From Candidatus Berkelbacteria bacterium RIFCSPLOWO2_01_FULL_50_28 (GTDB taxonomy: Bacteria > Patescibacteriota > UBA1384 > 2-12-FULL-50-11): a stretch of DNA of 64,000 nucleotides. The DNA lies in contig MEZX01000002.1 of NCBI GenBank assembly GCA_001774395.1, forward strand, positions 302,101 through 366,100, in the 5' to 3' direction. Made by a program: the position numbers and the translations under genes. Positions 3,368 through 59,800 of the stretch are shown here, one piece after another; the stretch's first letter is position 1; each line of letters starts with the position of its first letter. Under the pieces are notes generated by a model. The model was not told the origin of the DNA. It made no database searches and saw nothing but the letters and a program-made list of their open reading frames with translations.

Positions 3368-3369
3368 GA

Positions 3370-6260: not shown

Positions 6261-7040
6261 ATGAGTAGACGATTGATCGTCGGTAACTGGAAGATGTATC
6301 CCACTCTTAGTGATGCGCTGGTACTGACCAGCTCGCTTAAGACGGCCCTAGAAGGTGTTAAGGGGGTTGAGATAGCGCTGGCCCCGCCGACGCCCTGGTT
6401 GGTCCCGGTAGTTGAGTCTTGGCATCACAAACTAGAGAACGTCCACTTTGCCGCGCAAGATATCTGGCCTCACGATCAAGGGGCTTACACCGGACAAGCC
6501 TCAGCATTTCTACTAAAGAACCTGGTCAGTTACGCTATCGTCGGCCATTCGGAGCGCCGAAGTTACGTTGGCGAAGACAATGATCTGATAAACGACAAAG
6601 TGCACGCCTGTTTACGTTGGGGTATCAAACCGATTCTCTGTGTCGGGGAAACCAAGCGCCTACTCGACGCAGACGGCAATACTGATTCTTACCAGTGGAG
6701 CCGTCTATCTATCCAGCTAATGGAAGGGTTATCTGGCATAAAAGAAGAGGACCTGGCAAAAGTCTCAGTTGCTTATGAACCTGTTTGGGCGGTTGGTACT
6801 AAGCGTCCGGCGACTCCCGAATACGCCTTGGAAGTTATCGGGAGACTGCGTGAGAAGCTAAGTGAAAAGTACCCGCGTAGAGCACTTGGCGAGCTGCGGA
6901 TCCTCTACGGGGGGGACGTCGACGTACAGAATGCAGCCGGCTTTATGAAATACCCGGAGATCGACGGCTTTTTGCTTGGTAGGGAAGCGGTTCACGCAAG
7001 AAACTTTGCCAAAGTCTGCTCGACCGCGGCCAGCTTGTAA
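6261..7040 (+). CDS. tpiA: triosephosphate isomerase
   Basis: Motifs GNWKM, GHSERR, YEPVWAVGT and CVGE. Confidence 0.9.
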   Translation: MSRRLIVGNWKMYPTLSDALVLTSSLKTALEGVKGVEIALAPPTPWLVPVVESWHHKLENVHFAAQDIWPHDQGAYTGQASAFLLKNLVSYAIVGHSERRSYVGEDNDLINDKVHACLRWGIKPILCVGETKRLLDADGNTDSYQWSRLSIQLMEGLSGIKEEDLAKVSVAYEPVWAVGTKRPATPEYALEVIGRLREKLSEKYPRRALGELRILYGGDVDVQNAAGFMKYPEIDGFLLGREAVHARNFAKVCSTAASL

Positions 7041-11001: not shown

Positions 11002-11003
11002 CA

Positions 11004-11972: not shown

Positions 11973-11973
11973 G

Positions 11974-41174: not shown

Positions 41175-41837
41175 TCATTTCTTTACACGCCCGGTACCTT
41201 TTGTACCGGGCATTGTTATATTCTTAATCTCAATAGCTAGGCGTCTGACGATTACTTTATTGGAGAGAAAAGAGAATTTTGATAAGACCTTTTGCTTGAA
41301 ATGGTCATCGAGATCGAAAAGCAAACTACTTTGAGATTTTAGAGCGATTGTTAAGGGTAAGCGCGAGCTAAGCGAAACTAGATGAACCTTCTTGTTGAAT
41401 CTCTGAGCGGTCTCGATAGCGTAGAGTAAGTCAGCGTCACCGGTGATAATTAATGCTTCGTCGTAACTATCAGTAGCCGCACCTACTGCCATATCAATCG
41501 CGAGGTGCACATCAACGCCCTTCTCTTTGCCTGTGGTCTTGGAGAAGTGTCCTTGGTAAAAAATGGTTTTGTGGTTTTTCTTGACGCTGTCGAAAAACTT
41601 CCTTTGGGTTAGCGCTAAGGTTCGCTTGGCCTTGGAATCAGTTGAGAGGTGACGCATATAGGTTCCGTAAAAGTAAATTTTCTCTAGTGAAAAATCTTGC
41701 TCCAATTGCCCGACAAAGTCAGAAAAGTTAAAGTATTGACCAGAATTCAACATCTCGGCCATCCCACCGAAAAGATTGGAGCCGTCAACGAAGGCGACGA
41801 CTCGCCCGCTATCTGATTTAGCTTTGGCACCAGCCAT
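41175..41837 (-). CDS. NYN/LabA-like (PIN-like) domain protein
   Basis: VAFVDGSNLFGG, GVDVHLAIDM and ITGDADL motifs typical of the NYN (DUF88) domain. Confidence 0.7.
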   Translation of the reverse strand: MAGAKAKSDSGRVVAFVDGSNLFGGMAEMLNSGQYFNFSDFVGQLEQDFSLEKIYFYGTYMRHLSTDSKAKRTLALTQRKFFDSVKKNHKTIFYQGHFSKTTGKEKGVDVHLAIDMAVGAATDSYDEALIITGDADLLYAIETAQRFNKKVHLVSLSSRLPLTIALKSQSSLLFDLDDHFKQKVLSKFSFLSNKVIVRRLAIEIKNITMPGTKGTGRVKK

Positions 41838-41844
41838 ACTCTAA

Positions 41845-41889
41845 AACTCCCCCTCTCCCCTGTAAGTGGATAAAAAGTAACCCTCCATG
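41845..41889 (-). promoter_or_regulatory. conserved 45-nt leader/promoter-proximal element, copy upstream of the NYN gene
   Basis: ACTCCCCCTCTCCCCTGTAAGTGGATA...AACCCTCCATGT (plus strand). Near-identical to 60990..61034. On the coding strand it gives a purine-rich GGGGAGAGGGGGAG tract just 5' of the ATG. Confidence 0.5.
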
Positions 41890-42038
41890 TGATTTCAATA
41901 TGAAATATTAACAGTTAAATGTCAAAGAGTACCGAACCTGGGGAAAATGGCAAAAATTAAGACTAAGAGTCAGAGATAATTTAATCTTATGTAAATAAAG
42001 TAACTTTTAGTTGAGGCACAGTAGATCAGCTCAAAGAG

Positions 42039-42410
42039 TCAACGACGGTTTTTGAGAGTAAGAACGCTTGCACCAAGGATATTTGCAATTTCTTTGAGTT
42101 CAATTGCTAAAGATGCGATTTGTTCCTTGTATTCCACGGTAGTTTGATCGATGATAATTAACCAGTAGTCTGTCTCGTTGGCTGACTTGAGGGCGATTTG
42201 AAAAAAGCGAAGATAATCCCGCCTTGAGCTTGAAGACTTTGCTTCGTGAACGTTGGCTCCTATCGAAGTAGCGCTCCGTAGTAGTTGGTCGGCAATCGAT
42301 CGAAGATATGGCTTCCGGTTAATCAACTCACATAACTTTACAGTTCTAACGGAAAAAGCAATCAATCTCTTATAAAACTGCTCTTTAAATTTTTGTTTAT
42401 CATTTTCCAT
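42039..42410 (-). CDS. four-helix-bundle protein (TIGR02436 / 23S rRNA intervening-sequence protein family, Avd-like)
   Basis: 123 aa with LLRSATSIGANVHEA...RRDYLRFFQIALKSANETDYWL, the hallmark motif of this family. Confidence 0.75.
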   Translation of the reverse strand: MENDKQKFKEQFYKRLIAFSVRTVKLCELINRKPYLRSIADQLLRSATSIGANVHEAKSSSSRRDYLRFFQIALKSANETDYWLIIIDQTTVEYKEQIASLAIELKEIANILGASVLTLKNRR

Positions 42411-42441
42411 TTTCGTATTTACATTTTAATTTTACCACTAG

Positions 42442-42468
42442 GTCGTCAAGAAAATTAACAGGTTCAAA
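42442..42468 (-). promoter_or_regulatory. shared upstream box TTTGAACCTGTTAA-N6-TTGACGAC (coding-strand view), copy before the four-helix-bundle gene
   Basis: Same box at 61062..61089 upstream of the 13-kb giant gene. Contains a -35-like TTGACG. Confidence 0.4.
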
Positions 42469-42516
42469 TCGCTTTGAGGTTTTACGAGATCCTACCGGAA
42501 GAAAACGATCAAGTGT

Positions 42517-43491
42517 CTAACCCATTCTCCGGATAGATCGGGGGGCTTTGGCGGCTCGGAGGAGTTTGGCGAATTTGCGTTTCTGACGCTTGCGGTAGAT
42601 GAATAAGAGGACAAACAGGATTAGTAGTGCGATGCAAAGAATAATTAGCCACATCGGGAAGACATAGAAAACTAACTCCGAGCTCAGCTGGTCGCCTTTT
42701 TCGCCGTAGAGGATATTTAGGGTGGCGACATAACGACCGATCTTCAACGGCTGATCGTAGGATTGAGTAATTAAACGATCGGCCTTCGGAAAAATGTTTT
42801 TCTGATCGAAATCGATGCTGGCGGTCTTACGGCCGAAGATGTTAGTCAGGGTGATAAAGCCTTTTGGTTTGATATGGACAGAACCGTTGTTGTGGATTCG
42901 GGAATTGAACGTGATAGGTGAGTGTTCAAAACGTATTTTATCGACTTTAAATTCTTTAACATAAGCCGAGTAGCTGATATCACCAGCCACAGCTACCAGA
43001 ATTAAGCTACCAACCTTTGTTCTCGTAACGGCACCCGTGCCGCTAACTTTGTCGTTGTTTGCTAAATAGGCCAGAATTGAGCCGTATTGACCGCCTGGTT
43101 CAGCGTTGACGGGGATAGTGATAACGAACTTAACGACTTGTGTCTGTAAGGGGGTTAGGGTGAACTTCGACGGCGTAATCTTCGTCCAGTTTTTTAGGAA
43201 ATAAATTGAGTCATCTTCCGCGACGATTTTAGCTTGTCCGAGTTCGTTGCCAACGAACGGCTGGATTCCCATCTGATATTTTTGGACAATCCCGCTGGTG
43301 TTAACAACTTTCATTGAGCTCTTTATGGTATCGCCGGGCTTGGCAGAGAGCTCAAAGAGCGGTGGAGAAATGGAAACTTTTGCTTGGTCTACAGTCGCTT
43401 CCTGAGCCCGGATATTGGCTGGCAAGACAGAAAAAACTAATACCAAGACCACCAGCGCTAAAATTCTCAATTTACAATTTACAATTTTCAT
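42517..43491 (-). CDS. DUF916/DUF3324-like cell-surface protein, copy A'
   Basis: Signal peptide MKIVNCKLRILALVVLVLVF. Block ITIPVNAEPGGQYGSILAYL. C-terminal TM plus tail RKRQKRK. The first 7 codons are the intergenic-type AAAATTGTAAATTGTAAATTG motif. Confidence 0.55.
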   Translation of the reverse strand: MKIVNCKLRILALVVLVLVFSVLPANIRAQEATVDQAKVSISPPLFELSAKPGDTIKSSMKVVNTSGIVQKYQMGIQPFVGNELGQAKIVAEDDSIYFLKNWTKITPSKFTLTPLQTQVVKFVITIPVNAEPGGQYGSILAYLANNDKVSGTGAVTRTKVGSLILVAVAGDISYSAYVKEFKVDKIRFEHSPITFNSRIHNNGSVHIKPKGFITLTNIFGRKTASIDFDQKNIFPKADRLITQSYDQPLKIGRYVATLNILYGEKGDQLSSELVFYVFPMWLIILCIALLILFVLLFIYRKRQKRKFAKLLRAAKAPRSIRRMG

Positions 43492-43886
43492 TAAATTTTC
43501 AATTTATCAATTTTCAGTGTACCCGTATTTTGGCGTAAGCTCGATGTTATTTTCTGAAAGATTAGGGTTAACTCCTGACATTCGCTGACGATGGGCTCAG
43601 GTGGTTCAGCCAATGATGGCAGTGCTGTCCTAAGCATTCGGAGCCAATGTCTAGTTTCTTGAGCCTCTTTTTTACAGATGAAGATCTTATTACTAAAGTC
43701 TTTGCGCGAGCTAGCAGCGTTGGCTTCAGAGTAGTTTGCCCCGATGCTGGTTGCAGAGCGAATCAGCTGATTAATAATAGGGCTACAAATAGAGTCCTGC
43801 TTAATCGTTCGGCACAAAATAATCACCGATTCGCCAAACTGCGCCGTTCTTTCCTCTAAATCATATTTGCTTGATGGTTGTGTCAT
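43491..43886 (-). CDS. four-helix-bundle protein (TIGR02436 family, Avd-like), second copy
   Basis: LIRSATSIGANYSEANAASSRKDF...AQETRHWL. Confidence 0.7.
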   Translation of the reverse strand: MTQPSSKYDLEERTAQFGESVIILCRTIKQDSICSPIINQLIRSATSIGANYSEANAASSRKDFSNKIFICKKEAQETRHWLRMLRTALPSLAEPPEPIVSECQELTLIFQKITSSLRQNTGTLKIDKLKI

Positions 43887-43994
43887 CCAATTGATAATTA
43901 GCTCATTGTAAATTTATTGTAAATTGCAAAATTGAGAACTGAAAATTATTACCCATTTTCAAACTATACACCCCAGTTGTCTCAACTCAACACG

Positions 43995-45182
43995 CTAAAA
44001 CGTTCCGGTCGTAATATAGTCGGCGGTACCAGTATAGGCACCAGCGGCCTGAGTAGCGTCAGCCGAAAGCCGCCAACCGGCATAGGCGACATCACTTGAG
44101 ACACCAACGATGCTCGACATAATAGTTGACGGAGCTTCAGATGCGCCTATATCGGCAACAAGCTCAAATTTTTGAGTGCCACCGCCGCATTGCTCGGCCG
44201 CCGTATCCCAGCCAGCGTTAGCTGTGGCTGCGGCATCCCCGGTGGTGTCGTCCATACAGACAGCATAACCGTTGTTAGTAGCTGTAGCCCAGGCATTTGG
44301 GGTTGTTAGGTTACATGCTCCGTCACAGGTACCAACCGCAAAAGCATTGGCGCCACTGTCTAAGCCCGCTACTGTGTAGACTGTTACTGTGTAACCGGTG
44401 CCAGCGTTGGTTACCACGGTCAGTTGTTGGCAGATATCGTAAAAAGCTTCTGTCGAGATTACTGCGTAGGGAATTGTTGTGGAGGTTGAAGTAATTTTTG
44501 TTCCGCCGGTAGTTGTACAAGAACCGGACGTAACAGCGGCAACAGCAAGAGTTAAAACCTCGTCAAGAGCGGCCGAAACGGCTATGGCCGCGGTTACGAC
44601 AATGATTGTGTCTTGGGAATCTTCGTCGGTGGAATCTACCGCTAGATTGTAAGTGGCGGCTGTTGAGTTAACAATTTGCGTATTACCGGTGCCACCGCTG
44701 GTGGCGTGCGTTCCGATTTCGATGACGATTACAACACCCGCCGCCTCACCTGCATAAGTCCCACAAGCAGTAAAAGTGAAAACATCTGCGGCCACAGTGG
44801 TAATCTCGATCGTGTCGCCAGCGCAAGCGTCGGACGAATCTACAATCGTCTCTTCAACAGCGTTAACGGTGATGTCGTAATCAAGCGCATCAGTACTGGC
44901 AAAGCCAGATGTGTCAAAGCCTGAAGCAAAGGTGAGAACGAGCGTATCGCCGGCGCTAAAATCACCGCCGGTGGCTTGGTCTAAGGTGATGGTGTGGTTT
45001 GCGGCAGTCGAAGGGCGAGAATCGGTAATGACATCCTTTAGGCTGTCTGGTCGGGCGGCAAAGGCTTTTGGCACAGAGAAGCCAGACAACACGATGGCGA
45101 CGATGGCCAAAAATATTAACCCCCGCTCAAGCTTTACCCTCTGCGAGGTGAACACCTGAACTGATTTTGCTAAATAATACAT
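43995..45182 (-). CDS. secreted ~395-aa protein with shared C-terminal domain (WxL-like?), copy B'
   Basis: Start set at the internal MYYLAKSVQ..., parallel to the MYYKA start of 11974..13146. Signal peptide ...KAFA/ARP. C-terminus AGWRLSADATQAAGAYTGTADYITTGTF. ATG is 4 nt after the upstream gene's stop. Confidence 0.55.
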   Translation of the reverse strand: MYYLAKSVQVFTSQRVKLERGLIFLAIVAIVLSGFSVPKAFAARPDSLKDVITDSRPSTAANHTITLDQATGGDFSAGDTLVLTFASGFDTSGFASTDALDYDITVNAVEETIVDSSDACAGDTIEITTVAADVFTFTACGTYAGEAAGVVIVIEIGTHATSGGTGNTQIVNSTAATYNLAVDSTDEDSQDTIIVVTAAIAVSAALDEVLTLAVAAVTSGSCTTTGGTKITSTSTTIPYAVISTEAFYDICQQLTVVTNAGTGYTVTVYTVAGLDSGANAFAVGTCDGACNLTTPNAWATATNNGYAVCMDDTTGDAAATANAGWDTAAEQCGGGTQKFELVADIGASEAPSTIMSSIVGVSSDVAYAGWRLSADATQAAGAYTGTADYITTGTF

Positions 45183-45186
45183 GTCT

Positions 45187-46350
45187 TTAGAATGTCCCCG
45201 TTGTAATATAGTCGGCAGTACCGGTGTAGGCACCAGCTGCCTGGGCACCGTCAGCCGATAATCTCCAGCCTATCTTGGAGATATCCGTTACCCCAACGGC
45301 ACTCTGCATAATCGTTGAGGGCGTTTGAGGACCAGATAGATCGGCAACTAGTTCGAACTGCTGAGTACCTCCGCCGCACTGCCCAGCCGCTGCCCAGTCG
45401 GCGTTAGCAGTTTCAGCAGCGTTTCCGGTCGTGTCGTCCATACAGATAGCGTACCCATTAAAGGTGGCAGTTCCCCACGGAGCAGGATCGGTTAAAGTAC
45501 AAGCGCCATCGCAGGAACCAACTGCAAATGGATTAGCACCAGCATCCAAACCAGTGACAGTGTAAACGGTGACTGTATAACCCGTACCGGCATTGGTAGC
45601 TACGGTCAGTTGTTGGCAGATATCGTAAAATGTTTCTGTGGATATTGTCCCGTAAGGAATTGTTGTTGCCGTACTCGCAGCGGGTTTCGTGCCACCGGTG
45701 GTTGTGCAGTTTGCATCCGCGGCCAGACCGGCCACTGTTAGGGTCAAAACTTCATCGATTGTGGCCGAAATTGCTACACCTGCTGTTAGAACCAAGACAG
45801 TATCCTGAGAGTCATCGCCGTAACTGCCGGCCACATTCAATTGAGAGGTGCCCGCTGTGGTGTTGACAATCCGGGTGGTCCCGCCAGCGGCGTTGGAACC
45901 GAACTTCATGGTGATGGCCGTACTGGCCGCCTCAGCGGTGTAGCCACTACAGGCCGTGAAAGTCACCACCTGGGAAGCAAGCACATACTCGACACTATCC
46001 GTTGCGGTACAAGAAGCTATTAGTGTTTCGCTAGTGGCGCCGTTCACAAAGTCAACATCAGTCAATGTTAAGGTCGTCAAGTTGTACCCAGCCGGGAAGG
46101 TAACAATTACAGTTTCACCAGCAATGAAAGTAGTGCTTCCAGAGAGATCGAGAACTATCTCGTGGTTAGACGCAGTCGAAGGGCGAGAGTCACTCAATGT
46201 ATCCTTCAAACTGGTTGGGCGAACGGCAAAAGCGGATTGAATCCCGAAGGGCTGGGCAATTATAGCAATTAAGCTTAACACCGCTAAAACAACGCGGTAG
46301 CGATTAGCTAATTGCTTAGTTTTAGGGGCTACAAGGTAACCACGAACCAT
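45187..46350 (-). CDS. secreted ~387-aa protein with shared C-terminal domain, copy B2
   Basis: Paralogous to B'; N-terminal SLKDTLSDSRPSTASNHEI, C-terminal IGWRLSADGAQAAGAYTGTADYITTGTF. Start ambiguous between GTG at 46395 and ATG at 46350; ATG preferred. Confidence 0.5.
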   Translation of the reverse strand: MVRGYLVAPKTKQLANRYRVVLAVLSLIAIIAQPFGIQSAFAVRPTSLKDTLSDSRPSTASNHEIVLDLSGSTTFIAGETVIVTFPAGYNLTTLTLTDVDFVNGATSETLIASCTATDSVEYVLASQVVTFTACSGYTAEAASTAITMKFGSNAAGGTTRIVNTTAGTSQLNVAGSYGDDSQDTVLVLTAGVAISATIDEVLTLTVAGLAADANCTTTGGTKPAASTATTIPYGTISTETFYDICQQLTVATNAGTGYTVTVYTVTGLDAGANPFAVGSCDGACTLTDPAPWGTATFNGYAICMDDTTGNAAETANADWAAAGQCGGGTQQFELVADLSGPQTPSTIMQSAVGVTDISKIGWRLSADGAQAAGAYTGTADYITTGTF

Positions 46351-46431
46351 TAGAGCGACCTGATTTAACAATGATTTTATTTTTCCCCCTCGCACATACT
46401 ATATATACATTGAAGCGTATCCAACAGATGT

Positions 46432-46444
46432 GTCAACCCCGCAC
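46432..46444 (-). promoter_or_regulatory. GTGCGGGGTTGAC motif copy (minus orientation), just downstream of the GIY-YIG gene and upstream of the B2 gene
   Basis: Plus strand reads GTCAACCCCGCAC. Contains a -35-like TTGACA. A TATATA lies 23 nt downstream on the coding strand. Confidence 0.4.
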
Positions 46445-46447
46445 TTT

Positions 46448-46705
46448 TCAACCGTCTTGAAGGCAATGCCCAATACGCTTTTTCAACCTTGCGTAAGACT
46501 GACCAAATTGTTTGAGCTTCTTCTCTCGATCGAGCGCATCTAGTCTCGAGGCATAACCTTCAAGGTAGACAATCTTCCACGGTCGGTAAGGTTTTGTCGC
46601 AACTGACTTACCTTCGTTGTGATCGAGTAGTCTTTTCCGCAAGTTGTTCGTCTGCCCGAAGTAAAGTCGCTGTTCTTTTCCGAGTAGTACATACACCCAA
46701 TGCAT
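46448..46705 (-). CDS. GIY-YIG nuclease-family small protein (YhbQ/UPF0213-like, ~85 aa)
   Basis: MHWVYVLLGKEQRLYFGQTNNLRKRLLDHNEG...RPWKIVYLEGYASRLDALDREKKLK. Start trimmed to the family-typical M-x-W-V-Y-V-L. Confidence 0.7.
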   Translation of the reverse strand: MHWVYVLLGKEQRLYFGQTNNLRKRLLDHNEGKSVATKPYRPWKIVYLEGYASRLDALDREKKLKQFGQSYARLKKRIGHCLQDG

Positions 46706-46738
46706 AAGTTGATTGTAGCAACTTGCGACGGTTGAATA

Positions 46739-46758
46739 GTGCGGGGTCAACCCCACAC
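46739..46758 (-). promoter_or_regulatory. GTGYGGGGTTGACCCCGCAC palindromic copy of the motif, upstream of the GIY-YIG gene
   Basis: Near-perfect inverted repeat GTGTGGGG-TTGA-CCCCGCAC in the coding-strand view. Confidence 0.4.
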
Positions 46759-46770
46759 TAATTTTTCCGA

Positions 46771-47721
46771 TCATCTGCTCATAGCTCGCAAAAGTTTAGC
46801 TCGACGCCGGCGGAAGTACACGGTTGAACCAACCGCCAGAATTGCCAATAGCAGGACTATAATAATGAAGGGCCAGGGGATGGAGACAAATCGAGAACTG
46901 GCCACTAAGATTTTTCCGTCTTGCTTAAGAGTGAATTTGGCGTCGTAGACCCCGGGCCAGATTGTGCCGGTATAGGCGCTGATATATTGCCTCGAAGACT
47001 CGGGCATTAGGACCGAGCTCGCTAACTGGGTGACCATCTTTTGCTCACCCCAGGTTGGCGTTAAAGTCAGATCGCCATCAGCGAAAAAGAAAAATCCGGT
47101 CGGGTTACTAATTTCGGCCAGGAACGGTACCGGTGTGCTAACAACTATTTTCGGTGTCTGGAACGAGCTGATGCTCAAGCTTTCAATGGTTGGCTTCGTG
47201 GTCGAATCGACCGAAAGCAAAAACGAGGTGCTTAATGCTGGAATAATTCGGGTATTGGCGTTTTCGTCAAAATAATTTGCTGGTAGGCGAGCCTGGAAAA
47301 TCAGGGCGGCGCTGTAACCACCCGGGACAGTACCCTTGGGCGCTAGGATGGTTACCTGAACTTCTTTACTGCCTTGGGCGTCCAAAATGAGGTCTGGACT
47401 GTCGAGCGTTAGCCATTCAACACCTGAGTGTGGCCTTGGCTCGGCCGTAAATTCGGGTGATCCGAGGTTGTTAATGCCACTAATACTAAATTTAGAAGCG
47501 GACAATGGGATTGGTTCCTTCCCAAGATTGGTAACTTTAATCTTCACGATCGTTTTCTCGCCTGGTTTAACGGTCTGCTGAACTAAGCCAGGGCTAATTG
47601 ACAGTGTCGGGCTAATGGCGCCTTGGCCTGACGCTGACAAGGTGAATGCAAATACCGACATTAAGATTGCCAGCGTTAGAATTTTCAATTTACAATTTAC
47701 AATTTTATCGCGTTCGCTCAT
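46771..47721 (-). CDS. DUF916/DUF3324-like cell-surface protein, copy A2
   Basis: Start set at MSERDKIVNCKLKILTLAILMSVFAFTLSASG (signal peptide). Upstream ORF extension is AT-rich repeat sequence. Block VTILAPKGTVPGGYSAALIF. C-terminal TM plus tail RRRRAK. Confidence 0.5.
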   Translation of the reverse strand: MSERDKIVNCKLKILTLAILMSVFAFTLSASGQGAISPTLSISPGLVQQTVKPGEKTIVKIKVTNLGKEPIPLSASKFSISGINNLGSPEFTAEPRPHSGVEWLTLDSPDLILDAQGSKEVQVTILAPKGTVPGGYSAALIFQARLPANYFDENANTRIIPALSTSFLLSVDSTTKPTIESLSISSFQTPKIVVSTPVPFLAEISNPTGFFFFADGDLTLTPTWGEQKMVTQLASSVLMPESSRQYISAYTGTIWPGVYDAKFTLKQDGKILVASSRFVSIPWPFIIIVLLLAILAVGSTVYFRRRRAKLLRAMSR

Positions 47722-47892
47722 TTTTCGTTCTGGCGAACTCAAAATCATTGAATTTTCAATCATCAAATTTTAATTTATCGGTTTTACCACATTCTGTCAT
47801 TTGAAATTCAATCGAAATTTGAAATTCGCCTCTCGACTCCGCTCGAGGCGACCTGAGCACCGTCGAATGGTCGAAATTTGAAATTACTTTTC

Positions 47893-50800
47893 TCATGGAA
47901 AAGTTGCTGTTATCACATAAACGACGTCAGCTGTGTAATCGCCGTTAGCTTGGGTGTTCGATGGGTAGAGGCGGTAAGTAATATCGTTGGTGGCGCCTGT
48001 GGCCGGTGCGGTTCGGTCGGCAACTGGGTCGCCCGGGCCGGTGTGAGAAAAGCCAGCAAATTTAGCCCCGCCGTTGGTAAAACGATCAGCCGTGCCGCCG
48101 GTTAACGATGAGTCGTCGGTTGAATAGCCAAAGCCGTAAGACCCAGCACTGAAGGTTGTCGGAGTCGCGTTCGTACCCGTCCAATCGGCTAGTGTCACCC
48201 CACCGAAGCGGACATTAGTCATCGCTTGGGTTGACCAAGCGTAAACGACATAGCCGTTCAAGGCATTACTAGAAGCGGTCAGCGTCGATGTTTGATCACT
48301 GGGGTTGGAGCCGGGGTTAATGGTACCGAAGTCTTTCGAAGTGGAGTCCAGGCCTAGGGTTAGTGTCTGACCAAAAATCCAGTTAACGGTGTTACCGCAG
48401 TCGGTGTTGGTGCCGTCGCTAGCGATAATTGTTGATCCGCCAGAGGCATCAGATCGAGAGACATTAACATACGAGGTTTTTATTTGGTCGTTACCAACGG
48501 CAGCGACATTTAGGAGCCAACTACCGGTAATGGCGGAGTTTCTGAAGTATAGTCTCGTTCCAACCGCTTGCCCGTTCCAGTTCATATTGTTAATCGTATA
48601 GGTGGCGCCGGATTCGTATTCTACTTTCACACTAGCTGTGGTGATGGTGTAGTTGTTGGTGACGGTTGCGGCGGCGTTAAAGTCGACTCCTGCCACCCAG
48701 CCCGTTCGTTCACAGTCGGATGCAATCGTGCCGGAGCTGTTAGTAATGGTCAGGTCGTAAAACGCGTTGGTTGTCAGCATCCCACCAGACAAGGTTTGGG
48801 TACTGGTGCCACTCAAAGTGGTCGTGCCGGTATTAGCGGTAAAGGTACCCGAGTTAGCGTAGTTGCCTTTAATTGCAAATGTTGCGGCTGAGGAAGCTTG
48901 GTAAGTTTGATTAGCTCCGATAGTAAGGTTGCCGGTAACGGTGATGGCAGGATCACTCGTTTCAGCATTAACAACGGCTGATCCAGCGCCAGTCAGGGTG
49001 AAATTGCCTAAAACTTCAGTTCCAGCACATGCGTTATGTACTAAGTAGCTATTAGCATAGAAAAGGTTGTAGGTGTCAACTTCGATATCGTATACAGTTA
49101 CGGTCTCACTCACTTTTTGGATACTTGTAATAGGTTCCGTTCCAGAATAGGTGGCAAGCAGATCGCCAACCCGCAGTTCCTCAACAGCTTTTGAGCTGTG
49201 GTCAGCCATAATAAAGACGTGATTTGCTGTGGCCTGCACCTGGTTGTTAATGATGTAGTACGCATCTTTAGTCCCAATAACTGTTCCAACAACTGGAGAT
49301 ATGACTACTTGGTTACTACTGAGGTCGTAGGATTTGACAAGGTCACCTTCTTTAAGCTCTTCAATTGGCGTACTTCCCGTGGGGGTAAGTACTTGGGTCC
49401 CAGCAAGGAAGGACGTGGCCGAAGTGGTCATTGTGTAGGTCGGTGTACCAGAGGCCGGGCTGGTTTGGAGGTTGTAATAAGCTCTCGTGCCACAACCACT
49501 AGTGATGTTGGCGCTAGTGGTATTCTCGTAGCTAATCGTGGAAGCGTTGGCTGTAAATAACCCGGTCTTTGAGAAAGGAGTACCGCTACCAGTTAAGTGG
49601 TAAGTGCGATTGCCACCATCAAAGGTGGTGGCGGCCGAAGAAATACTCATGACGCTACTAACCGTAATATCTCCGGTTCCACCAGTTTGAGTGGTAATGG
49701 TAGCGGCGGGAGAAGCGGTAAACGTAAGGCTACTAAACGTCCAAGCGGTTGAGCCAGAAGTGGTGCCAAAGTTTTTAGCGCCTGCCACACTTTGGGTGAA
49801 TGTGCCGCCGGTGAGGTTGATGATACCTGCAGTTCCGGCGACGTTACCATTGACAGTAATATTCTGAGTACCGAGCAGCGATCCGGCAGTCATCGTCAGG
49901 TCGTTGGTAACAACCAAGGCGTCCTGAGGTGCCCAGCCACCGCCCGAACCGCTGAAAGTTAGGTTGTAGAATGAGTCACCAGCAGATTGGATAGTCTTAC
50001 TAGTGGCGGTTGCGTTAAAGATAAAAGTAGATGTCCCAGCGTTAAACACCGCATTACTTTCATTCGTAAAATTTGTTCCGACATAGACTGTTGAGGATCC
50101 GGCGGTAAAAATCGGTGCCCCGGTATTACCAGCTACTATAAAAGTCCCGACAGTAAGAGTTTGGTTGGCGGTGTCAAACTCACTATTTCGAGAGTTTCCC
50201 CAGCCAAACCGTAACGATCCGGTGATGGTAGTTGTTCCTGCCAAGGAGATTTTATAGCCGGTGCTGATATTGTCTGTAATGGTGGTATTGTAGGTAAACG
50301 CCGGGAGGGTGAAGTTGGCAGATCCGCTGAAGTCGATGCTTCCATTACCGAGTCCAAAAGTTCCAGCAGGGTCAAGACTGAAACTCCCCCCAGTTTTGTT
50401 CATACCTTTTGAATTAAAGTCAAAGGTTCCTGTCCCGAGAGTGAATGTGCCGTTATGGGCAGCACCGTTGTTTGTTATCAGTTGTGTGGTGTTGCCACTT
50501 TGGCCAACGGTCAAGTTGTAAAATCTGGGCTCCCAAGCATTTGTCGAGCCATTTTTGATAGTTTTTGTACCCGTCCCATTCATCACAACCGTTGAGGTAC
50601 CTTCGACGATACTGACACTGTCTTGAGCAACTGCACTAGTATCCCAATTACCGGAAACCGTAATAATTGAAGCCCGTTCTGTGAGAGACCAGGTGCCGGC
50701 GTTACCTGTCAGGTTGCCGCCAATAGTTAGAGCGTAGTTAAAGGTAGTATTGGTATCAAAAGTGCCGTTAGTAATATCGAAATTGTTAGTGACGCTCATC

Positions 50801-53800
50801 GCGTCTTGGAGCGTCCAGCCCCCACCCGAACCGTTGAAAATAATATTATATAATGCTGAGCCGCCAGTCATGGTTCCAGTGAGGGTTCGGCCGGTACTCG
50901 TTGAGCTGAAGGTCACTGTCCCTGTGCGAGCGGTAAAGGTACCGGAATTTGACCAGTTACCCCCAACTGTTAAGGCATAAGGAGTGGCCGTCACATCAAA
51001 CTCACCCGCGGTGATAGTGAGATTACCACCATTATCTGTAAGGGTTGCTTCCTCTAGCACATAAACCTCGGAACCGTTATTAACGGTTAGGTGGTGGTAG
51101 GTAGCGGACTGAACGGTTGAGTTGCCACCAGCGTTGTTGCCGGTGTAGGCGAAAGTGGAGGTAGCGGCAGTTAAGGCTCCAGCCGGGGAGGCGAGCAGTT
51201 GGAATGAGTCACCGGTTGTGCCACTTAAAGTCCAGGTGCGGTTACCAGCATCTAACGTTGTGGTGGCTCCAGAAGAATCACCGGATTTTCCAACCCTCAA
51301 AATGTCACTGACGGTTATTCCACCACTTCCACCTGTTTGGGTGGTAATAGTTCTTCCTGCTGCTGGGGCACCGAGCGAGTTAGAAAAAGTTAGATCATAA
51401 AATGTCCAAGCAGTACTGCCACTTGTTGTGCCAAAGTTTTTATTAACCCCTACCCGCTGTTCAAACGTCCCCCCAGTTAAGCTGATAACCCCTGAGGTTC
51501 CAGCGACATTGCCGTTGACGGTGATGTTTTGGGTACCGTTCAAGGTGCCAGCGGTCATCGTGAGGTCGTTAGCAATTGCCACGGCTGCATCAGGTTGGAC
51601 GGTTGCGGCTCCGTTCACGATCACGTTGTAAAGGGTCTGGCTGTTAGGAGAGTATGTCGAGGTACCAGTCGACGGGGCAAAGGTGAATGTTGAAGTGCCG
51701 TCATCGACCGCTAATGTTCCGGTGCCGTTGACGAACTTAACATGGCCGGTTGCTGAGATGAAAGCGGTTTGGAAATTGGCAGTATGAGTTCCGCCATTGG
51801 AGTTGACGTAAAAAGTGTCGGTAGCACTCGCGCGATTGAAGGTGGCGGTGCTTGATCCCCAATTCGAACTCGTGGCGCCATTGTCGGTTGAGTCGCCCTG
51901 GACCCATTTATCTGCGTTAATGGTGTAGTTTTGGGTATTAAAGGTTGCCGTTCCCGTAGCGTCTGCTTTTACCTGCGTGTATCCGCTGGTAGTAATATTA
52001 CCCCCGACATTAAAAGTCACCAGTCCCGCGACATCGCTGTGCATCAGGATACTCCAGGTGCCGTAGTTGGTGGCACCAGTGACGGTAACAGTCGCGGCGC
52101 TTAGTTTACGCAACTGGAAGGTGGCATTAGAACCAGATAGGGTTGCTCCTGTTCCTAATACTAAGTCGGCTCCAGCTGTTCTAAACAGTTCAAATTCACA
52201 GGTGACCGAACACGTCATCGTGCCGCCACTGGCATCACCGATGGTTAAAATGCCAAAGACATCGGTTCGGGCTCTGGTCATCGTGGTTGTTTTGGTGTTG
52301 TAGGCAACGGTCAGGTTTTCAAACTGGGTCGTACCCGTACCTGCGATATTGCCGTCACCATTAAGCTGAACGGTTGAGCTGTCGCGGGTGAAGACACCGT
52401 TTAGGTCCACCGTCCAGTGGCGACTGACGGTGATTGTTGAAGTCCGGGCTCGGAAAACAGCACTAGCACTACCAGCGATTGCGACATCACGGGTAACGTT
52501 AACGGCGTGGTTACTAGTAGTGGTGTCAAATGTTCCGAGAGTAATAGTAAGATCGTTAGTGATGATGACCGCGCCACTAGGTGTTACTGTTCCCCCAGAG
52601 CCGTTCAAGATCACGTTATATAGAGATTGACCATTCGGAGCGTAAGTCTTAGAACCGGAAGTATGGACCCAGGTAATTGTCGAAGTTCCAGGGGTTACCG
52701 TTATAGCGGGAGTGCCGTTAATAAACAGAACGGCGCCGGAAACCGTCACTGACGAGCTACCAAGATTAAGGGTACTGCTTGTTCCGCCGTAGGTAGCGTG
52801 AGGAAGGATGGAGTTGGTTGTACTACTCAAAGTAACGGTGCTAGAGCCGAAGCCAACAGCAACCGGGCCATCACGCCCAGCATTGCCATCACCGAACTGC
52901 AAAGTAGCCGCGGTTAGAGCGAAGTTTTGGGTGTTGACAGTTGTTCCAGTTACAGCCGTATTGGCCGCAACATAGACACTTCCGGTAGTTGTAATATCAC
53001 CAGCGAAATTATAAATGCTGTTATTAGCAGTTGCGTACGGTTCAATGGCCCAGTTCCCGTAATTGCCACCGGCCATTGTGAAAGTGGAGCCAGCCCCTCC
53101 GTTAATAAGGAAGCTCATTACAGAGCCACCAGTGAGCGTGGTAGCGGCGCCAAAGACGAGAGGAGTTTTGCTAATACTACCAGCGAGGTTAATGTACGAG
53201 GCGGCCTGACTGACCGTTCCCCCATTCAGGGTCATCACTCCATTAACTTGGTTCATACTGGTGCCGACGGTAATCGTTTTACCCGAGCCGGCCAACTGAA
53301 GGTTGTACATCTGGCTAGCAGAGTTGAGGGTACCGGTGTTGTCAGCCGTACCAGTCATATTAACCGTTGAGGCAGTGCCTTCGGTGAATTTGTTGCCAGT
53401 ATCGTTAAAATCGTTACCAACAGTAATTGTTGAACCGTTACCAATCAGAACAACGCCGGCAGTGTTAGCTAGCGTCAGGTCTCGAGCGACGTTAACGGCG
53501 TAGTTTGAGCCGGTCGTATCAAGCGATCCGTTGGTAACTGTCAGGTCTCGGCCGGTGCCGGTTGTACCTTCAAGGACGAAGGTTTCGGAGGAGTTGTTGG
53601 GGATTAGGTCGTAGTAAGTTGCCGACTGAATAGTTGTACTGCCAGCACCGTTATTGCCGGTGTAGGTGAAGGTTGAGCTGGCGGCGGTTAGTGATCCGGC
53701 GGGGGAAGCAAGTATTTGGAAAGAGTCACCAGTAGTACCAGACAGAGTCCAAGTGCGATTGCCGGCATCGAAGTAAGTGCCACAACCGTCAGCGGCCTTA

Positions 53801-56800
53801 CCTATTCTCATAACATCGCTAACTGTTATTCCCCCTGATCCGCCGGTTTGAGTCGTGATGAAAAATGCGGCACAGATTGGGGAGTTAGGATTCGAAAATG
53901 TCAGATCGTAGAATGTCCAAGCGGTTGAGCCGCTCGTTGTCCCGAAGTTCTTGGCCGCCCCAACTCTTTGCTCAAAAGTCCCACCCGTCATAGTAATCGT
54001 TCCTGCGGTGCCAGCAACGTTACCACTAACAGTTACATTTTGTGTTCCATTCAAGTCACCAGCCGTAATAGTAAGATCATTAGTAACGGTTAGAGCGTCA
54101 ACAATAGTGATATCGTCGCCAGTATCGTCAATAATAAGGTTGTAAAAACTCTGGCCGGCAGAGGTCATGTCGCCATCGGCAGTTGCGTTACCCATTGTTA
54201 CAGTTGATGTCCCAGGGGTGATCACGGCGGTATCGAGATTTTCCCAGTTACTACCTATGGCGTAGCTCGCCGAGCCCAAACTCATTGCAACTGTGCCGGC
54301 AGTGGATGTAAAACGGAAAAGTGCTGTCACGATCCAGGCAGTATTGTTGACGGTATTATCAATTGTTAGTGCACCGGTAATATTATTAGTAGTTACAAAT
54401 GTATAAACATTCATTGTTCCGGCTCCGATTGTGTAGGTTTGAGTTCCAGACGCTGGGCGGAAGTAGAGGTTACCAGCATAAGTATAGGCAGGGATGGTGG
54501 TGCTGCCAGTCATGGAATAATAGAAGTTGGGGACACTAATTGTGCCAGTGTATGAATAGGTAGGAGTTGCATTAGTAACATGGAAGCAACCTCCACTGCC
54601 GCCAATAGTACCCGCAATTGTTAATGTGGTGCCGGTACCGCCGTCGTAATAAATCGCTTGGGCGCAGCCGGCAACGCTGTTGAGCGTTCCTTGGATGTTG
54701 AGATCACTGATGACATGGATATCTGTTGCTGTCTGTGTGTAAATAGCTCCACCAGAAATAGTTAATTTGTTAAAGTGAGTGCCCGAACCGCCGTTGGTGG
54801 TAATCGTCTTAGTTGTTCCCGAAAGGACGACTATTGAAGTCCCATAGCCAGTGGCCTGAGTTGTCCAAGTTGAGTTGCTTTGCGTCCAGTTGCCGCTAAC
54901 AGTAATAGTTGAGGCCTGGGCTTTATAGGTAGTGCCGGAGGAAAATGTTAGATCGCCTGCAACCGTTAGGGCGTAGTTACCAGTTGAATCGGCATCTACC
55001 GTGCCATTAGTTAAGTTGAAATTACTGGCAGTCTCAACTGCTGCGCCGTACGTCCAGCCACCACCGACGCCGTTGAAAGTGAGAACATAAAACTTGCCTG
55101 TTGCACCAGTCATTGTCCCAGTGAGAGTTTTACCGGTAGTAGTGGCGTTGAAAGTGACGGTTCCAGAATTAGCTAAGAATGTTCCAGAGTTAGAGTAACT
55201 ACCGCCGATGGTTAAGGCGAAGTTGCCGGCAGTCACGTCTAATGTACCGGCCGTAATAGTTAGGTTGTTCGAAGTGATTGTTGCGGCTTCTAGGACGTAG
55301 ATCTCAGAGCCGTTGTTCGGAGTTAGATTGTAGTAAGTGGTTGATTGAATGATTGTGTTGCCAGCGCCGTTATTGCCAGTGAAGGTAAAAGTGGATGTAG
55401 TGGCCGTAAACGTTGGACTGGCGGTGAACACAAAAGGATTACCGTTGGTTCCCGAAAGAGTGTATGTTTTTGCGTCAGCGTCAAATGAAAGCGTATCGGC
55501 GGTGGCGTCAAGCGTAAAAATACCTGAAACGGTAATCCCGCCACTTCCGGTCGCTGCGATTGCTGTTCCTGCTGAGTACGAAGCAGTTAGGGAAAGGTTG
55601 TTGAAAGTCCAAGCAGTGTTGCCCCCAAATAAAACGGCTCCTGATCCACCAAGAGTAAGAGTTCCGCCGGTTAAATTGATCGTCCCGTTACCTGTTAGGT
55701 CGGGATCGGCACCACCGTCGCCGACGCTAAGGTCTTGGGTCCCCAGTAACGATCCCGCCGTCATGGTTAAATCGTTGGTAGCCGTAACCGCCGCGCTTGG
55801 TGTCCACTCGCCGCCCGAACCGTTAAATGTAAGGTTGTAGAAAGCCGAAGCACTGGTCATGGTCCCCGCTAGAGTATTGCCAGTATCGGTCGCGTTGAAT
55901 GTTATGGTACCGGATTGAGCGGTAAAAGTGCCGGAGTTAGAATAATTGTTGCCGATCGTCAGGGCGTAGTTAGAAACTGTCACATCAAGAATGGCACTAG
56001 CGTGAGTGATGGTGAGATTATTTGTTACAACAGTGTCTCCTTCCAAAACGAAGGTATCAGCGGCGTTTAGCTCCAGGTCATAATACGAGCTGGTCATTGA
56101 TTGGATGGTCGTATTCCCTCCAGCATTAGCTCCGGTGTAATAGAGTTTAGAAGTACCACCTGTTAAAGCTCCGGCGGGGGAAGCCAAAAGTTGGAACGGA
56201 TCACCGCCAGTACCAGATAGGGTCCAAATTCTATTGCCGGCGTCCAAGGTTGCCGTACCTGCGTCACCGCTCACACCAACTTTCAAAATCCCACTAACTG
56301 TAATCCCGCCAGAGCCGCCTGTTTGAGTAGTAAAGGTAATTCCTGACACACCGGTGTTGGAAAAAGACAGACTACTAAACGTCCAGGCCGTAGAGCCCGA
56401 CGTGGTACCAAAGTTTTTAGAGGCAGCCGCAGTTTGAAGAAATGTTCCACCAGTTAAGCTAAAAGCTCCGGCTGTGCCAGCGACGTTACTATTAGCCGTG
56501 ACGTTTTGAGTTCCAAGGAGCGTTCCGGCCGTCATCGTTATATCGCCATTTATGTTAACGGCCGCGCTTGGTGTCCACTCACCGGCAGCGCCGTTAAAGA
56601 TGAGGTTGTAGAAAGACGACGAACCGCTCAGAGTTCCTCCGAGCGTATTGCCCGTATCTGTGGCGTTGAAGGTGACGGTGCCACTACGAGCCGTGAAGGT
56701 GCCGGAGTTAAGGTAATTGCCGCCGATTGTGAGGCCCCAGTTGGAGCCACTAACCGCATCCAAAATAGCAGATGCCTGAATGGTTAAGTTTCCAGTTGCT

Positions 56801-59800
56801 GTAGTAGCTTCCTCTAAAACATAGGTGTCGAAGGAACAGATCGCGGAGCAGCCTATATCAAGATTGAAATATGAGCCAGCCCCGCCTCTTTCTATAGTTG
56901 TATTTCCCGCCCCGTTCTCACCCCGATAAGCAAAGGTTGATGTCGAACCAGTTAACGACCCTGCTGGAGAAGCCAGGACTTGGAAGGGATCACCAGCAGC
57001 GCCGCTTAATGTCCAAGTACGGTTACCGGCATTGAGAGTTGTTGTCGCTCCGGCGGCGTCGCCGGACGCACCGACTCGAAGAATTGAAGAGACGGTGATA
57101 CCGCCAGAACCACCGGTCTGGGTGGTTACAGTAAACGGACTGGAAGCGTGAGAATTAGAGAAGGTCAGACTAACAAAAGTCCAGGCACTGGAACCGGAAG
57201 TCGTACCAAAATTCTCCGCTGCCGCTACCCTTTGCGTAAAGGTACTTGAGCCGCTCATGGTAATTGCTCCAACTCCAGTGGCGCTACCGTTTACTGTCAC
57301 ATCAACCGAACCGCTCATCGTCCCGCCAGTATTGGAAAGATCATTGGCAACCTGAACAGCATTAGTGCTTAGCGAGAGCGTACTGGCGCCAGAATGAGTG
57401 AGGTTATAGAATTGCTTCGTACTGCCGGTACCGCCGGAAATGATCGTTTGGGTACCGCTGGTGGCGGCAAAATCAACTGTGCCGGTGTCAGCGTTAAAGG
57501 TGCCACCGATACTATTTGTCCAGCTACCTTTGACGGTTAAATTGGCGGCGCCCATCGTCAGTATCCCCTGGGATTGTGAAAACGTGACACTGCCGTTGAA
57601 CGTGACAGTTTGGCCGTTAAGATTGGTAATATTGGCTCGACTACAGCAGTCGCTTACCGTCAGATTGCCGGTAAAGGTTGTAGTCCCTTGGAAAATAAGA
57701 CTATAGGTATTTGGGAGGGAGTTAACCAGGCCGGAGTTATAGGTATAGGCGAGTAGGTTAACGTTGGCAGAGCCGCCGTGGAAGTAGAGCGAGCCGTTAC
57801 CAGTTCCCCAAGTTCCCGCAAGAGAAAGTGGATTTGTCGGCGGAGAAGCCATAAAGAAGGTTTTTGAATTCAGGTCAAAGGTACCGGCCCCTAAGGTCAG
57901 CACGTTTTCAACAGCGAACGATTGTTGCATCTGGGTTGTTTTACCGACGGCCTGACCGACGTTCAAGTTCCAAAAACGGCCTTCCCACGTATTAGTTGCC
58001 CCTGTCGTTATCGTCTTCGTTCCGGTTCCGTCCATGATAACCGTCGAGCCACCCTCAACAATATTGACGCTATCTTGGGCAATCGCTGATGTATTCCAGT
58101 TCCCTGAAACAGTGATAGTCGAGTTACGCTCATTGAGTGTCCATGTTCCTGAGTTACCGGTAAAATTGCCGCCGACAGTTAGGGCATAGTTAAAAGTACT
58201 GTTAGTGTCGAGGGTCCCATTAGTAATATCGAAGTTGTTAGTGACACTCATCGCATCTTGGAGGGTCCAACCACCACCAGAGCCGTTGAAGATGATGTTG
58301 TAAAAAGATTGGGCGTTGGAGGTAATGGTTTTGCCGGTGGCGACGGCATTGAATGTGACAGTGGAAGTTCCAGGCGTAACGGTTATTACCCCGGTGCCGT
58401 CTTTGTATTTTAGGTTGCCTGCTATCGAGACCGATGAAGATCCCAAGTTCAAGGTATGTGTGCCACAGTTCGGACCAACATAAAGTGCGTCGGTAGTGCT
58501 TGTTAGCGATACTACAGATGCATTGAAACTAACTGCCCACGAGCCGGTTCTCGTTGGTGCACAGTCAGCGATAGAAAAAAGGAGAGCAGTAATAGAGTAG
58601 TTACTAGCAGTTGTTGTAAAAGCACTTCCCGTTACACCGTTAGCCGCTTGGAGTTTCATTACCCCCGTCGTGGTAACGTTTCCGCCAAGTTGCCAAGTAT
58701 TGCTGTTGGATGCCGTGTAAGTGTCAACACCCCAGGATCCGTAGTTTCCTCCGGGGATCGTTATCGTCAAGCTAGCAGCATCCGGTCGGAAATACAGATC
58801 TCGATTACCTGTAAGTGTCGTTGCTGAGGCAAAGACTACCGGCGTGCAAGAAATAGTGCAATGAAGATTCAACCAAGACGAGCCTCCTTCGGCGACTGTT
58901 CCGCCATTGAAAGTTAAAACATTATAAACATCGAAGCTGTTGGTTGAGATAGTTGTTGTGAAACCCGATGACCCCCACTGGAGATTATAATACTGACTAC
59001 CACTTGCAGATGTGAACGTCCCGGTACCGGACATAATTACTGTTGAAGTATCGTGGGCAAACTTGTCGCCCGTATCATTGTAATGTCGGGCGATATTGAG
59101 TGTCGAGCTACCAGCGGTGTAAGAAACTCCAGCCGTGTTAGCGAGTGTAAAGTCACGAGTAACAGTTAGATTTTGGTTGCCGGCCGTGATAGCGCCGTTG
59201 GTGCCATTAAAATCATTGGCCACCTCGACAGCGTTACTGAATGTCCAGCCACCAGCGGCGCCATTAAATGTTAGGTTGTAGAATTTGCCAGTCGCGCCGG
59301 TCATCGTGCCGCCGAGGGTTTTGCCGGTGGCAGTGGAGGAGAAAGTTACCGTGCCGCTGGCGGCGGTGAAAGTGCCGGAATTGCTCCAGTTGCCGGAAAC
59401 GGTGATGGCGTTGGTGGTGGAGACGGTCAAAGTGCCGCCGTTATCAATGGTGACCCCAGCGACCGTGACCGAAGCGGTGTCCTCGGTGATATTGTGGGTG
59501 TTAAGAATTTGAACCGTATCGCCCGCTTGAGGCGTAGTGAACCCACAGTTCGTCCAGGAAAGGGCGTCGCTCCAGTTACCGGTGGCGGCTGATTGACAGG
59601 CGTTGTCGGAGGCGATTAACCACGACCTGGGTTCCACCCACTTCGTGGAATTTTCAATTTTCGAATTTTGTCGGACTTCGCCTCCATAGCTTCTTCGCTG
59701 CGCTTCGTCGCTATCAGTTTTCAATGAATTTTCAATGCTTGAATTTTCAATTTCCGCGGGCTTGCCCGCCGTAGTTGCCTCCTTCGCCGAAGTGGCTACG

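Follow-up and report, generated by a model that had tools for sequence, protein, structure and literature searches.

Bacterial intein-like (BIL) domains have been known since 2003, and their natural role is still unclear. What such a domain might do inside a giant secreted protein is the question raised by one locus of Candidatus Berkelbacteria bacterium RIFCSPLOWO2_01_FULL_50_28, which we analyzed within a stretch of 64,000 nucleotides (the window; NCBI GenBank assembly GCA_001774395.1, contig MEZX01000002.1, positions 302,101 to 366,100 of the forward strand; coordinates below count from its first letter). A first-pass annotation, made from the sequence and its open reading frames (ORFs), had placed a Hint (intein/hedgehog-type) domain at 49034-49413 within one of two giant proteins encoded here, and had proposed a recently acquired BIL domain or mini-intein able to cleave, splice or branch its host. 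For the annotation of the window the value of our results is mainly corrective: the Hint domain is real, and it is not a recent mobile insertion. The overall reading that we consider likely is that of a type-A BIL domain, inherited as a cassette, that would direct autoprocessing of a giant fibre.

Identity of the Hint domain in giant A

The host gene, giant A, occupies 47893-60981 on the minus strand and encodes, according to the ORF list and its translation, a 4362-residue beta-helix-type repeat protein that is 17.5% Thr and 12.3% Gly and also rich in Ser, Ala and Asn. Its N-terminal 54 residues (60820-60981, minus strand), read directly from the translation, hold the hydrophobic stretch FFSFLFALVIGLGVLAFFG followed by PIRAQ and are probably a Sec signal peptide or signal anchor. 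The Hint domain lies at 49033-49413 on the minus strand, starting one base away from the position first given. It comprises 127 residues (3857-3983 of giant A), contains neither a cysteine nor an endonuclease insert, and runs from SFLAGTQV to SYLVHN (SFLAGTQVLTPTG...VYDIEVDTYNLFYANSYLVHN), thereby separating a fibre of ~388 kDa (residues ~55-3856) from a 38.9-kDa C-terminal piece. The insertion is no assembly artefact, because 12 independent contigs from several assemblies, including NCBI GCA_001776175.1 MEZW01000023.1, encode the unchanged 4362-residue protein. No other Hint copy was found in the second giant, giant B (13157-41068, 9303 residues), or elsewhere in the window. The repeat-rich length of giant A, its N-terminal hydrophobic signal and the existence of homologues with and without the Hint domain all agree with a hypervariable secreted giant protein, the type of host that the annotation had named for BIL domains in general.

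Profile comparisons identified the isolated segment as a Hint domain. Pfam Hint_2 matched it with E 7.5e-10 and 39.8 bits, where the cut-off is 28.4, and NCBIfam TIGR01443 intein_Cterm passed its cut-off as well (17.3 against 15.6). Scores below the respective cut-offs were obtained for Pfam Intein_splicing (35.1 bits against 35.8), PT-HINT (PF07591; 23.9 bits against 27.7) and Hint (PF01079; 18.8 against 29.7). The best sequence match in the PDB, over the full length, was 2LWY, a bacterial intein-like domain of Clostridium thermocellum (E 8.7e-9). Together, the Hint_2, intein_Cterm and 2LWY matches bear out the intein/hedgehog-type Hint domain on the profile comparison that had been suggested as its check. 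A word-index homologue search with the Hint domain alone as query found nothing, and relatives were instead collected with HMMER by searching 1.84 billion representative proteins exhaustively; this gave 6787 matches at E<=1e-3, with 605 of them reaching E<=1e-10.

Further support for the BIL assignment is provided by structure prediction. An AlphaFold2 model of the domain, built from a 62-sequence alignment, is all-beta with a mean predicted local distance difference test score (pLDDT) of 88.3 and low confidence in the flanks only. In a Foldseek search of the PDB with this model, the Tetrahymena BIL2 structure 6y75 ranked first (E 1e-11, template modelling (TM) score 0.83, 27% identity) and 2lwy second, followed by mini-inteins and, far lower, by Hedgehog 1at0. 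The BIL identity put forward in the annotation is therefore upheld both by the closest sequence relative and by the Foldseek BIL matches, and the segment is almost certainly a BIL-type Hint domain.

Catalytic columns were read from an alignment of the segment with 33 relatives (34 domains), and residues were counted in 210 full-length domains of 158 proteins, comprising the 150 best HMMER matches and further proteins from an earlier homologue search. Ser1 (codon TCC, 49411-49413, minus strand) stands where 199 of the 210 related domains have their N-terminal Cys nucleophile; in nine of them the residue is Ser and in two Phe. Ser is a normal, competent N-terminal nucleophile of inteins. Block B is represented by T62-A-N-H65 (TxxH; 49219-49230, minus strand), whose Thr and His are nearly invariant in the 34 aligned domains. 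Block F is VYDIEV (V107-Y-D109-I-E-V), and its Asp109 (49087-49089, minus strand) is Asn or Asp in wider relatives. The domain ends in the block G residues His126-Asn127 (49033-49038, minus strand), a pair that is invariant in the 34-domain alignment and present in 208 of the 210 domains. From the translation, the first residues of the C-flank are Ala3984 (+1) and Cys3985 (+2; together 49027-49032, minus strand). Writing a slash for each junction, the arrangement is Thr(-1)/Ser1 ... His126-Asn127/Ala(+1)-Cys(+2), just as the annotation had described it; the canonical N- and C-terminal blocks reported there are likewise found, with blocks A, B, F and G all present. The +1 residue among the 210 domains is Lys in 161, Ala in 15, and Cys or Ser in only 6. 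In an alignment of 10 copies from giant proteins (pairwise identity 35-71%, mean 49%), only 26 of 127 positions are invariant, T62, H65, D109, H126 and N127 among them; position 1 is limited to Ser or Cys, and +1 is A, F, V, W or I. As judged from these alignments, the domain keeps the catalytic positions of class 1 inteins (Ser1, T62, H65, D109, H126-N127) and lacks a +1 nucleophile. A boundary moved by one residue, with Cys3985 at +1, was rejected because the domain would then end in Ala, a residue incapable of cyclisation, and because relatives do not conserve the Cys.

Because it has a His-Asn end and no +1 nucleophile, the domain matches the type-A BIL pattern. Type-A BIL domains were reportedly described by Amitai et al. 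in 2003 and Dassa et al. in 2004, and the structure 2LWY, which is of C. thermocellum BIL4, is said to be that of Aranko et al. in 2013. The window domain has in common with them a Hint fold of ~130 residues free of a homing endonuclease, the TxxH motif, the C-terminal His-Asn, the absence of a +1 nucleophile and a variable secreted or surface host. It departs from them in its nucleophile, with Ser1 in the place of the Cys of described BILs, in having no cysteine at all, in being located at a fixed beta-helix repeat loop of giant Patescibacteria proteins upstream of a pilin-like docking domain, and in that its activity is predicted. On this pattern we assign the segment to the type-A BIL Hint domains, a family that overlaps Pfam Hint_2, PT-HINT and Intein_splicing. 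The family of the domain is thus already known, and it occurs here in a host of the type expected for it; new are the conserved Ser1, cysteine-free version and its fixed rung position in the beta-helix of Patescibacteria giants.

Two other Hint classes were compared. In the Hedgehog/Hog class the Hint domain has no terminal His-Asn and precedes a sterol-recognition region at the C-terminus of the protein. Here PF01079 scores below its cut-off, the domain ends in His-Asn, and 379 residues follow it. The resemblance to pretoxin HINT is greater in architecture, as pretoxin HINT and the window domain each precede a C-terminal module within a large secreted protein, and Hint-profile relatives carry PF07591 as a precomputed domain. 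Here, however, PF07591 itself is below cut-off, and the C-terminal module is a beta-helix end with a pilin-like domain, not a toxin. A toxin reading of the C-flank was rejected on the lack of any Pfam toxin family match and on the pilin-like end; no obvious immunity gene follows giant A, the downstream gene being chaperone-like.

Insertion site and age of the cassette

The Hint domain divides one repeat unit of the fibre. The first half of this unit, YYNLQTSPASGTPTYTMTTSAT (49414-49479, minus strand), forms the N-flank, a motif that is conserved together with the Hint domain in relatives and that the Hint-free homologue P0006 has too. The C-flank ('C-extein'; 47896-49032, minus strand; 379 residues, 38.9 kDa) contains the second half of the interrupted repeat, a final stretch of beta-helix, a conserved end module (...DCERTGWVAGVDF...NWNG...FRNS...SYVNVSRSDAS...) and a C-terminal domain. 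It matched no Pfam family, and no meaningful match came from PDB sequence and profile searches, whether with the C-flank or with its C-terminal domain. The host loop around the cassette reads YYNLQTSPASGTPTYT...(Hint)...GNFTLTG. Uninterrupted repeat units of the type FYNLTLSPAISTSGRTYTFGTSALTINGNFTISPSG are found in giant B and in homologue P0002, and the cleanest empty site is that of P0006 (...SYENTTSANVTSTTYGNLQFSPASGTPTYTLLSGALSTSGNFTLAGVGNGTINAESNDPSI...), which is 47% identical to the window N-flank and 51% identical to the C-flank and has 2 residues between the flank blocks where the window has 134. The claim that the Hint domain interrupts a repeat unit left whole in the paralogue is thus confirmed in giant B and extended by P0006, and relative to this empty-site homologue the domain is read as an insertion into a beta-helix repeat loop.

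The insertion had been considered recent, and its DNA had been described as AT-richer than its flanks. The segment does have a lower GC content, 44.4% against 50.5% in the rest of the gene, which places it in the lowest 0.12% of same-size windows of the gene. The reason for this is its amino-acid content, as the Hint domain is not Thr/Gly/Ala-rich like the fibre: its own residues, encoded with the codon usage of the host gene, predict a GC content of 45.4%. Third-position GC (GC3) is 0.441, compared with 0.507 +/- 0.055 for windows of the gene (12th percentile, ~1.2 standard deviations). The observation of lower GC was therefore correct, and a foreign composition was rejected on the agreement of expected with observed GC and on the percentile of GC3. 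Nor were insertion scars detected, the Hint segment being flanked by short chance repeats only, with no flanking direct repeats found.

A cassette at the same repeat site, marked by the repeat YYNLQT(S/N)PASGTPTYT, is found in at least 11 diverged giant proteins of 39-62% identity. In P0001, 62% identical to the window copy, the sequence runs ...YYNLQTNPASGTPTYTFKSSST/SFLAGTKV...NYLVHN/FGTTV. Other occupants of the site are P0020 (2382 residues), P0024 (4565 residues), P0084 (6009 residues) and the metagenome locus L012, and a further cassette lies at the same site on a Candidatus Berkelbacteria genome contig (L007); family member P0004 is labelled 'Patescibacteria group bacterium'. Ser1 is kept in seven independent sequences, and Cys1 cassettes occupy the same site in P0010, P0011, P0064/L015 and L013/L014. 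Given the native composition, the lack of flanking repeats and same-site cassettes in Ser1 and Cys1 versions across giants this diverged, recent acquisition is not borne out. Rather, the cassette is old, inherited at a fixed loop of giant secreted Patescibacteria fibre proteins and selected for catalysis. As a side observation, the giant gene of the nearest orthologue (P0001) is split at L005:2-7431 into three consecutive called ORFs of 109, 496 and 1899 residues, reflecting either frameshift errors or a decaying gene.

The same-site relatives also bear on whether the domain is a canonical mini-intein that precisely excises itself and restores the repeat unit, possibly after recent homing. Blocks A, B, F and G are complete, and removal of the Hint domain leaves a near-normal repeat unit. 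One cassette at this site (L013:903-1532 and L014:1501-2130) reads ...TYTLGTSYTCGGAQP/CFLAGTQIL...GYLVHN/SVCINEV...; with Cys1 and Ser at +1 it has every residue that marks a canonical splicing intein, which the window copy does not, and it looks able to splice canonically. Class 1 mini-inteins (gp41-1, Ssp/Npu DnaB, DnaE) moreover share the fold and the four blocks with the window domain, including a DnaE-like VYDIEV block F. Their sequence similarity to it is nevertheless weaker than that of BILs. At the +1 position the window copy has Ala3984, and 10 of the 11 cassette members are non-nucleophilic here, the Ser of L013/L014 being the only case. The 127-residue domain has no endonuclease domain, and it lies in a hypervariable beta-helix repeat protein, not at a conserved site of a conserved, essential one, which for canonical inteins is usually a replication or repair protein. 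The native composition, the absence of insertion scars and the age of the cassette likewise speak against self-excision after homing, which we regard as very improbable for this copy. Of the two identities offered by the annotation, BIL domain or mini-intein, the first stands and the second, in its canonical sense, does not. The cassette as a family straddles the border between BILs and inteins, with the window copy on the BIL side.

Predicted processing at the Hint junctions

What a type-A BIL domain at this position would do can be set out from its residues. After Sec export the Hint domain would fold, and Ser1, aided by T62 and H65, would convert the Thr3856-Ser3857 peptide bond into an oxyester by an N-O acyl shift. 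Asn127, aided by His126, would cyclise and break the Asn3983-Ala3984 bond. Canonical splicing passes through a branched intermediate, which could not form here for want of a Cys, Ser or Thr at +1. The main outcome would be a cut at one or both junctions, parting the ~388-kDa fibre from the 38.9-kDa piece with its Pam-pilin-like docking domain, while a minor splicing route would be open if the freed alpha-amine of Ala+1 attacked the ester, as proposed for type-A BILs. Consistent with this scheme, type-A BILs with a His-Asn end and without a +1 nucleophile form no branched intermediate and give mainly cleavage products, and they can splice when the freed amino group attacks the N-terminal thioester (PMC4031507; PMC7664689). 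Because every residue for the N-terminal acyl shift and for C-terminal Asn cyclisation is kept, cleavage, perhaps with non-canonical splicing, is a reasonable expectation. We think that the domain is probably catalytically active, and we lean slightly towards cleavage rather than splicing as its main outcome.

A number of points weigh against this reading. Asn116 occupies the block F position at which most relatives have His, although this position varies within the clade. A Ser1 oxyester is less amine-reactive than the thioester of characterised BILs, and the bulky +1 residues (F, W, V, I) of close relatives disfavour aminolysis. Since giant B and P0006 lack a Hint domain, the fibre as such does not require one. 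The match of the C-terminal domain to Pam pilins is 29-33 bits, below the cut-off of 55, and the AlphaFold2 model of the 379-residue C-flank (pLDDT 52) was unusable, being too poor for a fold search. Finally, the processing activity in giant A is itself a prediction from sequence.

Some of these points would also fit an inactive relic, in which the Hint fold persists as a structural bulge of the beta-helix after processing has been lost. The nucleophile is Ser and not the usual Cys of the family, Asn116 replaces the block F His, and the paralogue and P0006 function without the domain. Against a relic, every catalytic position is invariant over 10 copies that average only 49% identity, position 1 is confined to two possible nucleophiles, and Ser1 is conserved in seven independent sequences. 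With conservation of this kind we consider the loss of processing unlikely, and continue to favour an autoprocessing type-A BIL domain.

If such a domain cuts, the pieces need not separate at once. Giant A has 22 cysteines, all in close pairs apart from Cys3830 (49492-49494, minus strand), 27 residues before the Hint domain, and Cys3985 (49027-49029), 2 residues after it, each being the sole unpaired partner for the other. This makes the two a candidate disulfide across the insertion, between neighbouring beta-helix rungs, which could hold both pieces together after a cut. We treat this as a lead only; a comparable Cys pair is present at -6 and +3 in L013/L014, and the pair is not conserved in other relatives.

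A different fate of the ester is suggested by analogy with Hedgehog and with the Tetrahymena BUBL system. An external nucleophile, such as an amine or hydroxyl of the host surface or cell wall, might resolve the Ser1 ester, in which case the fibre C-terminus would leave the pilus-docking C-terminal module and be bound covalently to its target. BILs are the two best structural matches of the domain, and Tetrahymena thermophila BIL2 (6Y75/6TMM), the best of them, has an N-terminal thioester that is resolved by an amine and forms Lys isopeptide bonds to other proteins (PMC8616854). The Hint domain also marks the precise divide between fibre and Pam-pilin-like module, and its +1 residue is unconstrained. 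BIL2, on the other hand, is eukaryotic, has ubiquitin-like flanks and Cys1, and conjugates its upstream domain to lysines, and the window domain is likened to it by the structure match. Such a transfer is proposed purely by analogy and with a hypothetical acceptor; amines are poorly acylated by oxyesters, and the reaction would disconnect the fibre from the cell. A release or transfer switch of this type is thus rather improbable, and we prefer cleavage by an autoprocessing type-A BIL domain.

We would give about as little weight to the bolder proposal that a giant tip adhesin of a Pam-like pilus carries the Hint domain at its base as a programmed breakpoint or acyl-transfer device. Were it true, the cell would shed a ~388-kDa fibre from its docking domain, or hand the fibre covalently to a nucleophile on the host surface, and a Hedgehog/BUBL-style reaction would operate in the attachment organelle of an epibiotic bacterium. 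More generally, a conserved BIL cassette at a defined loop of a beta-helix rung, between a very large fibre and an apparent pilus-docking domain, offers a concrete setting for the question of what BILs do naturally, be it release, trimming, splicing or transfer. For protein engineering, the Ser1, cysteine-free Hint domain may have some appeal as a self-cleaving tag insensitive to oxidation.

Gene context and the wider Hint family

The docking function attributed to the C-flank comes from the C-terminal ~150 residues of giant A (47899-48345, minus strand), which resemble the donor-strand-accepting C-terminal domain of Pam pilus pilins. NCBIfam NF058581 (CPR_Pam_pilin_C) matched the 379-residue C-flank at 29.3 bits (E 7.6e-7) and the isolated C-terminal domain at 33 bits (E 4.8e-8), in both cases over the full profile and below the curated cut-off of 55. 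The C-termini of giants A and B are 33% identical (E 1e-15). Seven related C-terminal domains (giants A and B, three ORFs of ~400 residues, P0002 and P0003) share the ending G-x-Y-T-x-x-x-x-Y-x-x-T-A/G-T-F, and NF058581 was the sole family that they matched, with scores below the curated cut-off. The Pam pilus of Candidate Phyla Radiation bacteria, reported by Troman et al., is a recently described Patescibacteria-specific filament whose pilins have a truncated immunoglobulin (Ig)-like C-terminal domain that accepts a donor strand, whose tip subunit consists of that domain alone, and whose chaperones have a C-terminal transmembrane helix (bioRxiv 10.64898/2026.03.03.709456).

The genes around both giants resemble such a system. 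Directly after giant A lies a chaperone-like ORF (46771-47766, minus strand; cf. PamC/PamD) with the sequence features of a signal peptide, an Ig-like region, a transmembrane helix at the C-terminus and a basic tail, and with weak sub-threshold matches to WxLIP_PGBD and fn3_5; its paralogues lie at 42517-43491 and 11004-11972, the three ORFs being mutual homologues. Two secreted pilin-like proteins of ~400 residues (45187-46395 and 43995-45248, minus strand) are 57.5% identical and share the C-terminal motif of the giant, and a third pilin-like ORF (11974-13146) follows giant B. These pilin-like ORFs encode two-part proteins whose C-terminal domains match NF058581 weakly. The anchor-like ORF at 10168-11004 encodes an invasin/Big_1 domain together with a C-terminal helix. 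Pilin-like and chaperone-like genes thus follow both giants (regions 10168-13146 and 41175-47766), with hidden Markov model support that is below curated cut-offs throughout. The likeness to the Pam pilus lies in the C-terminal match of giant A to NF058581 and in neighbours that resemble two-domain pilins and membrane-anchored chaperones. Unlike the window, where all scores are below the curated cut-off, described Pam pilins are of 39-55 kDa, and neither a giant subunit nor a Hint domain appears in the results sections consulted (bioRxiv 10.64898/2026.03.03.709456). From the sub-threshold matches and gene order, it is reasonably likely that the two giants are FimH/PapG-style tip subunits, each a huge fibre with a docking domain, of two Pam-like operons. 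The link of Hint-bearing giants to a Pam-like pilus, which is probable, would be new.

Other features of the region were noted alongside. A conserved module of ~120 residues (~48400-48780 in giant A; ...SDCERTGWVAGVDFNAAATVTNNYTITTASVKVEY...NWNG...FRNS...SYVNVSRSDAS...DCGNN.NW.F) with no family match occurs once near the C-terminus of giant A and at least three times in giant B (residues ~1365-1488, 3737-3851 and 6411-6521) at 62-75% identity; it also terminates several shorter homologues (P0002-P0004 and P0007). Between the giants, the minus strand carries small GIY-YIG, two 23S_rRNA_IVP-family and NYN-domain ORFs (46448-46774, 43491-43886, 42039-42410 and 41175-41837, the first three coordinates being converted from the gene calls of L001). 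The GIY-YIG gene stands by itself at a distance of ~2.3 kb from the Hint domain, and nothing ties the two.

Among related proteins with a full-length domain, 59 of 128 carry 2-5 full-length Hint copies. In many of them, including P0012-P0015 and P0018, the Hint array directly follows the signal peptide (...AFARGGGG/CFL...). The copies of such arrays, each of the form C1...HN/K, are parted by Lys-Gly(1-5) linkers only (KGGG 17, KG 15, KGGGG 8, KGG 7). We know of no role described for Lys-Gly peptides from Hint arrays; if both junctions fire, tiny Lys-Gly peptides with a thioester and free amines would arise. Finally, Ser1 Hint domains are fairly common in metagenomes, with Ser1 present in 7 of 20 full-length Hint domains recovered from metagenome loci. 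Five of these loci (L008, L009, L018, L019 and L020) have Ser1 Hint domains (SFIAGTQIL..., SLIAGSHVL...) in unrelated flanks, with some contigs binned as Gammaproteobacteria or Methanosarcinales. Because Ser1 Hint domains occur in such unrelated contexts, BIL-type domains with a Ser nucleophile extend beyond the giants of Patescibacteria.

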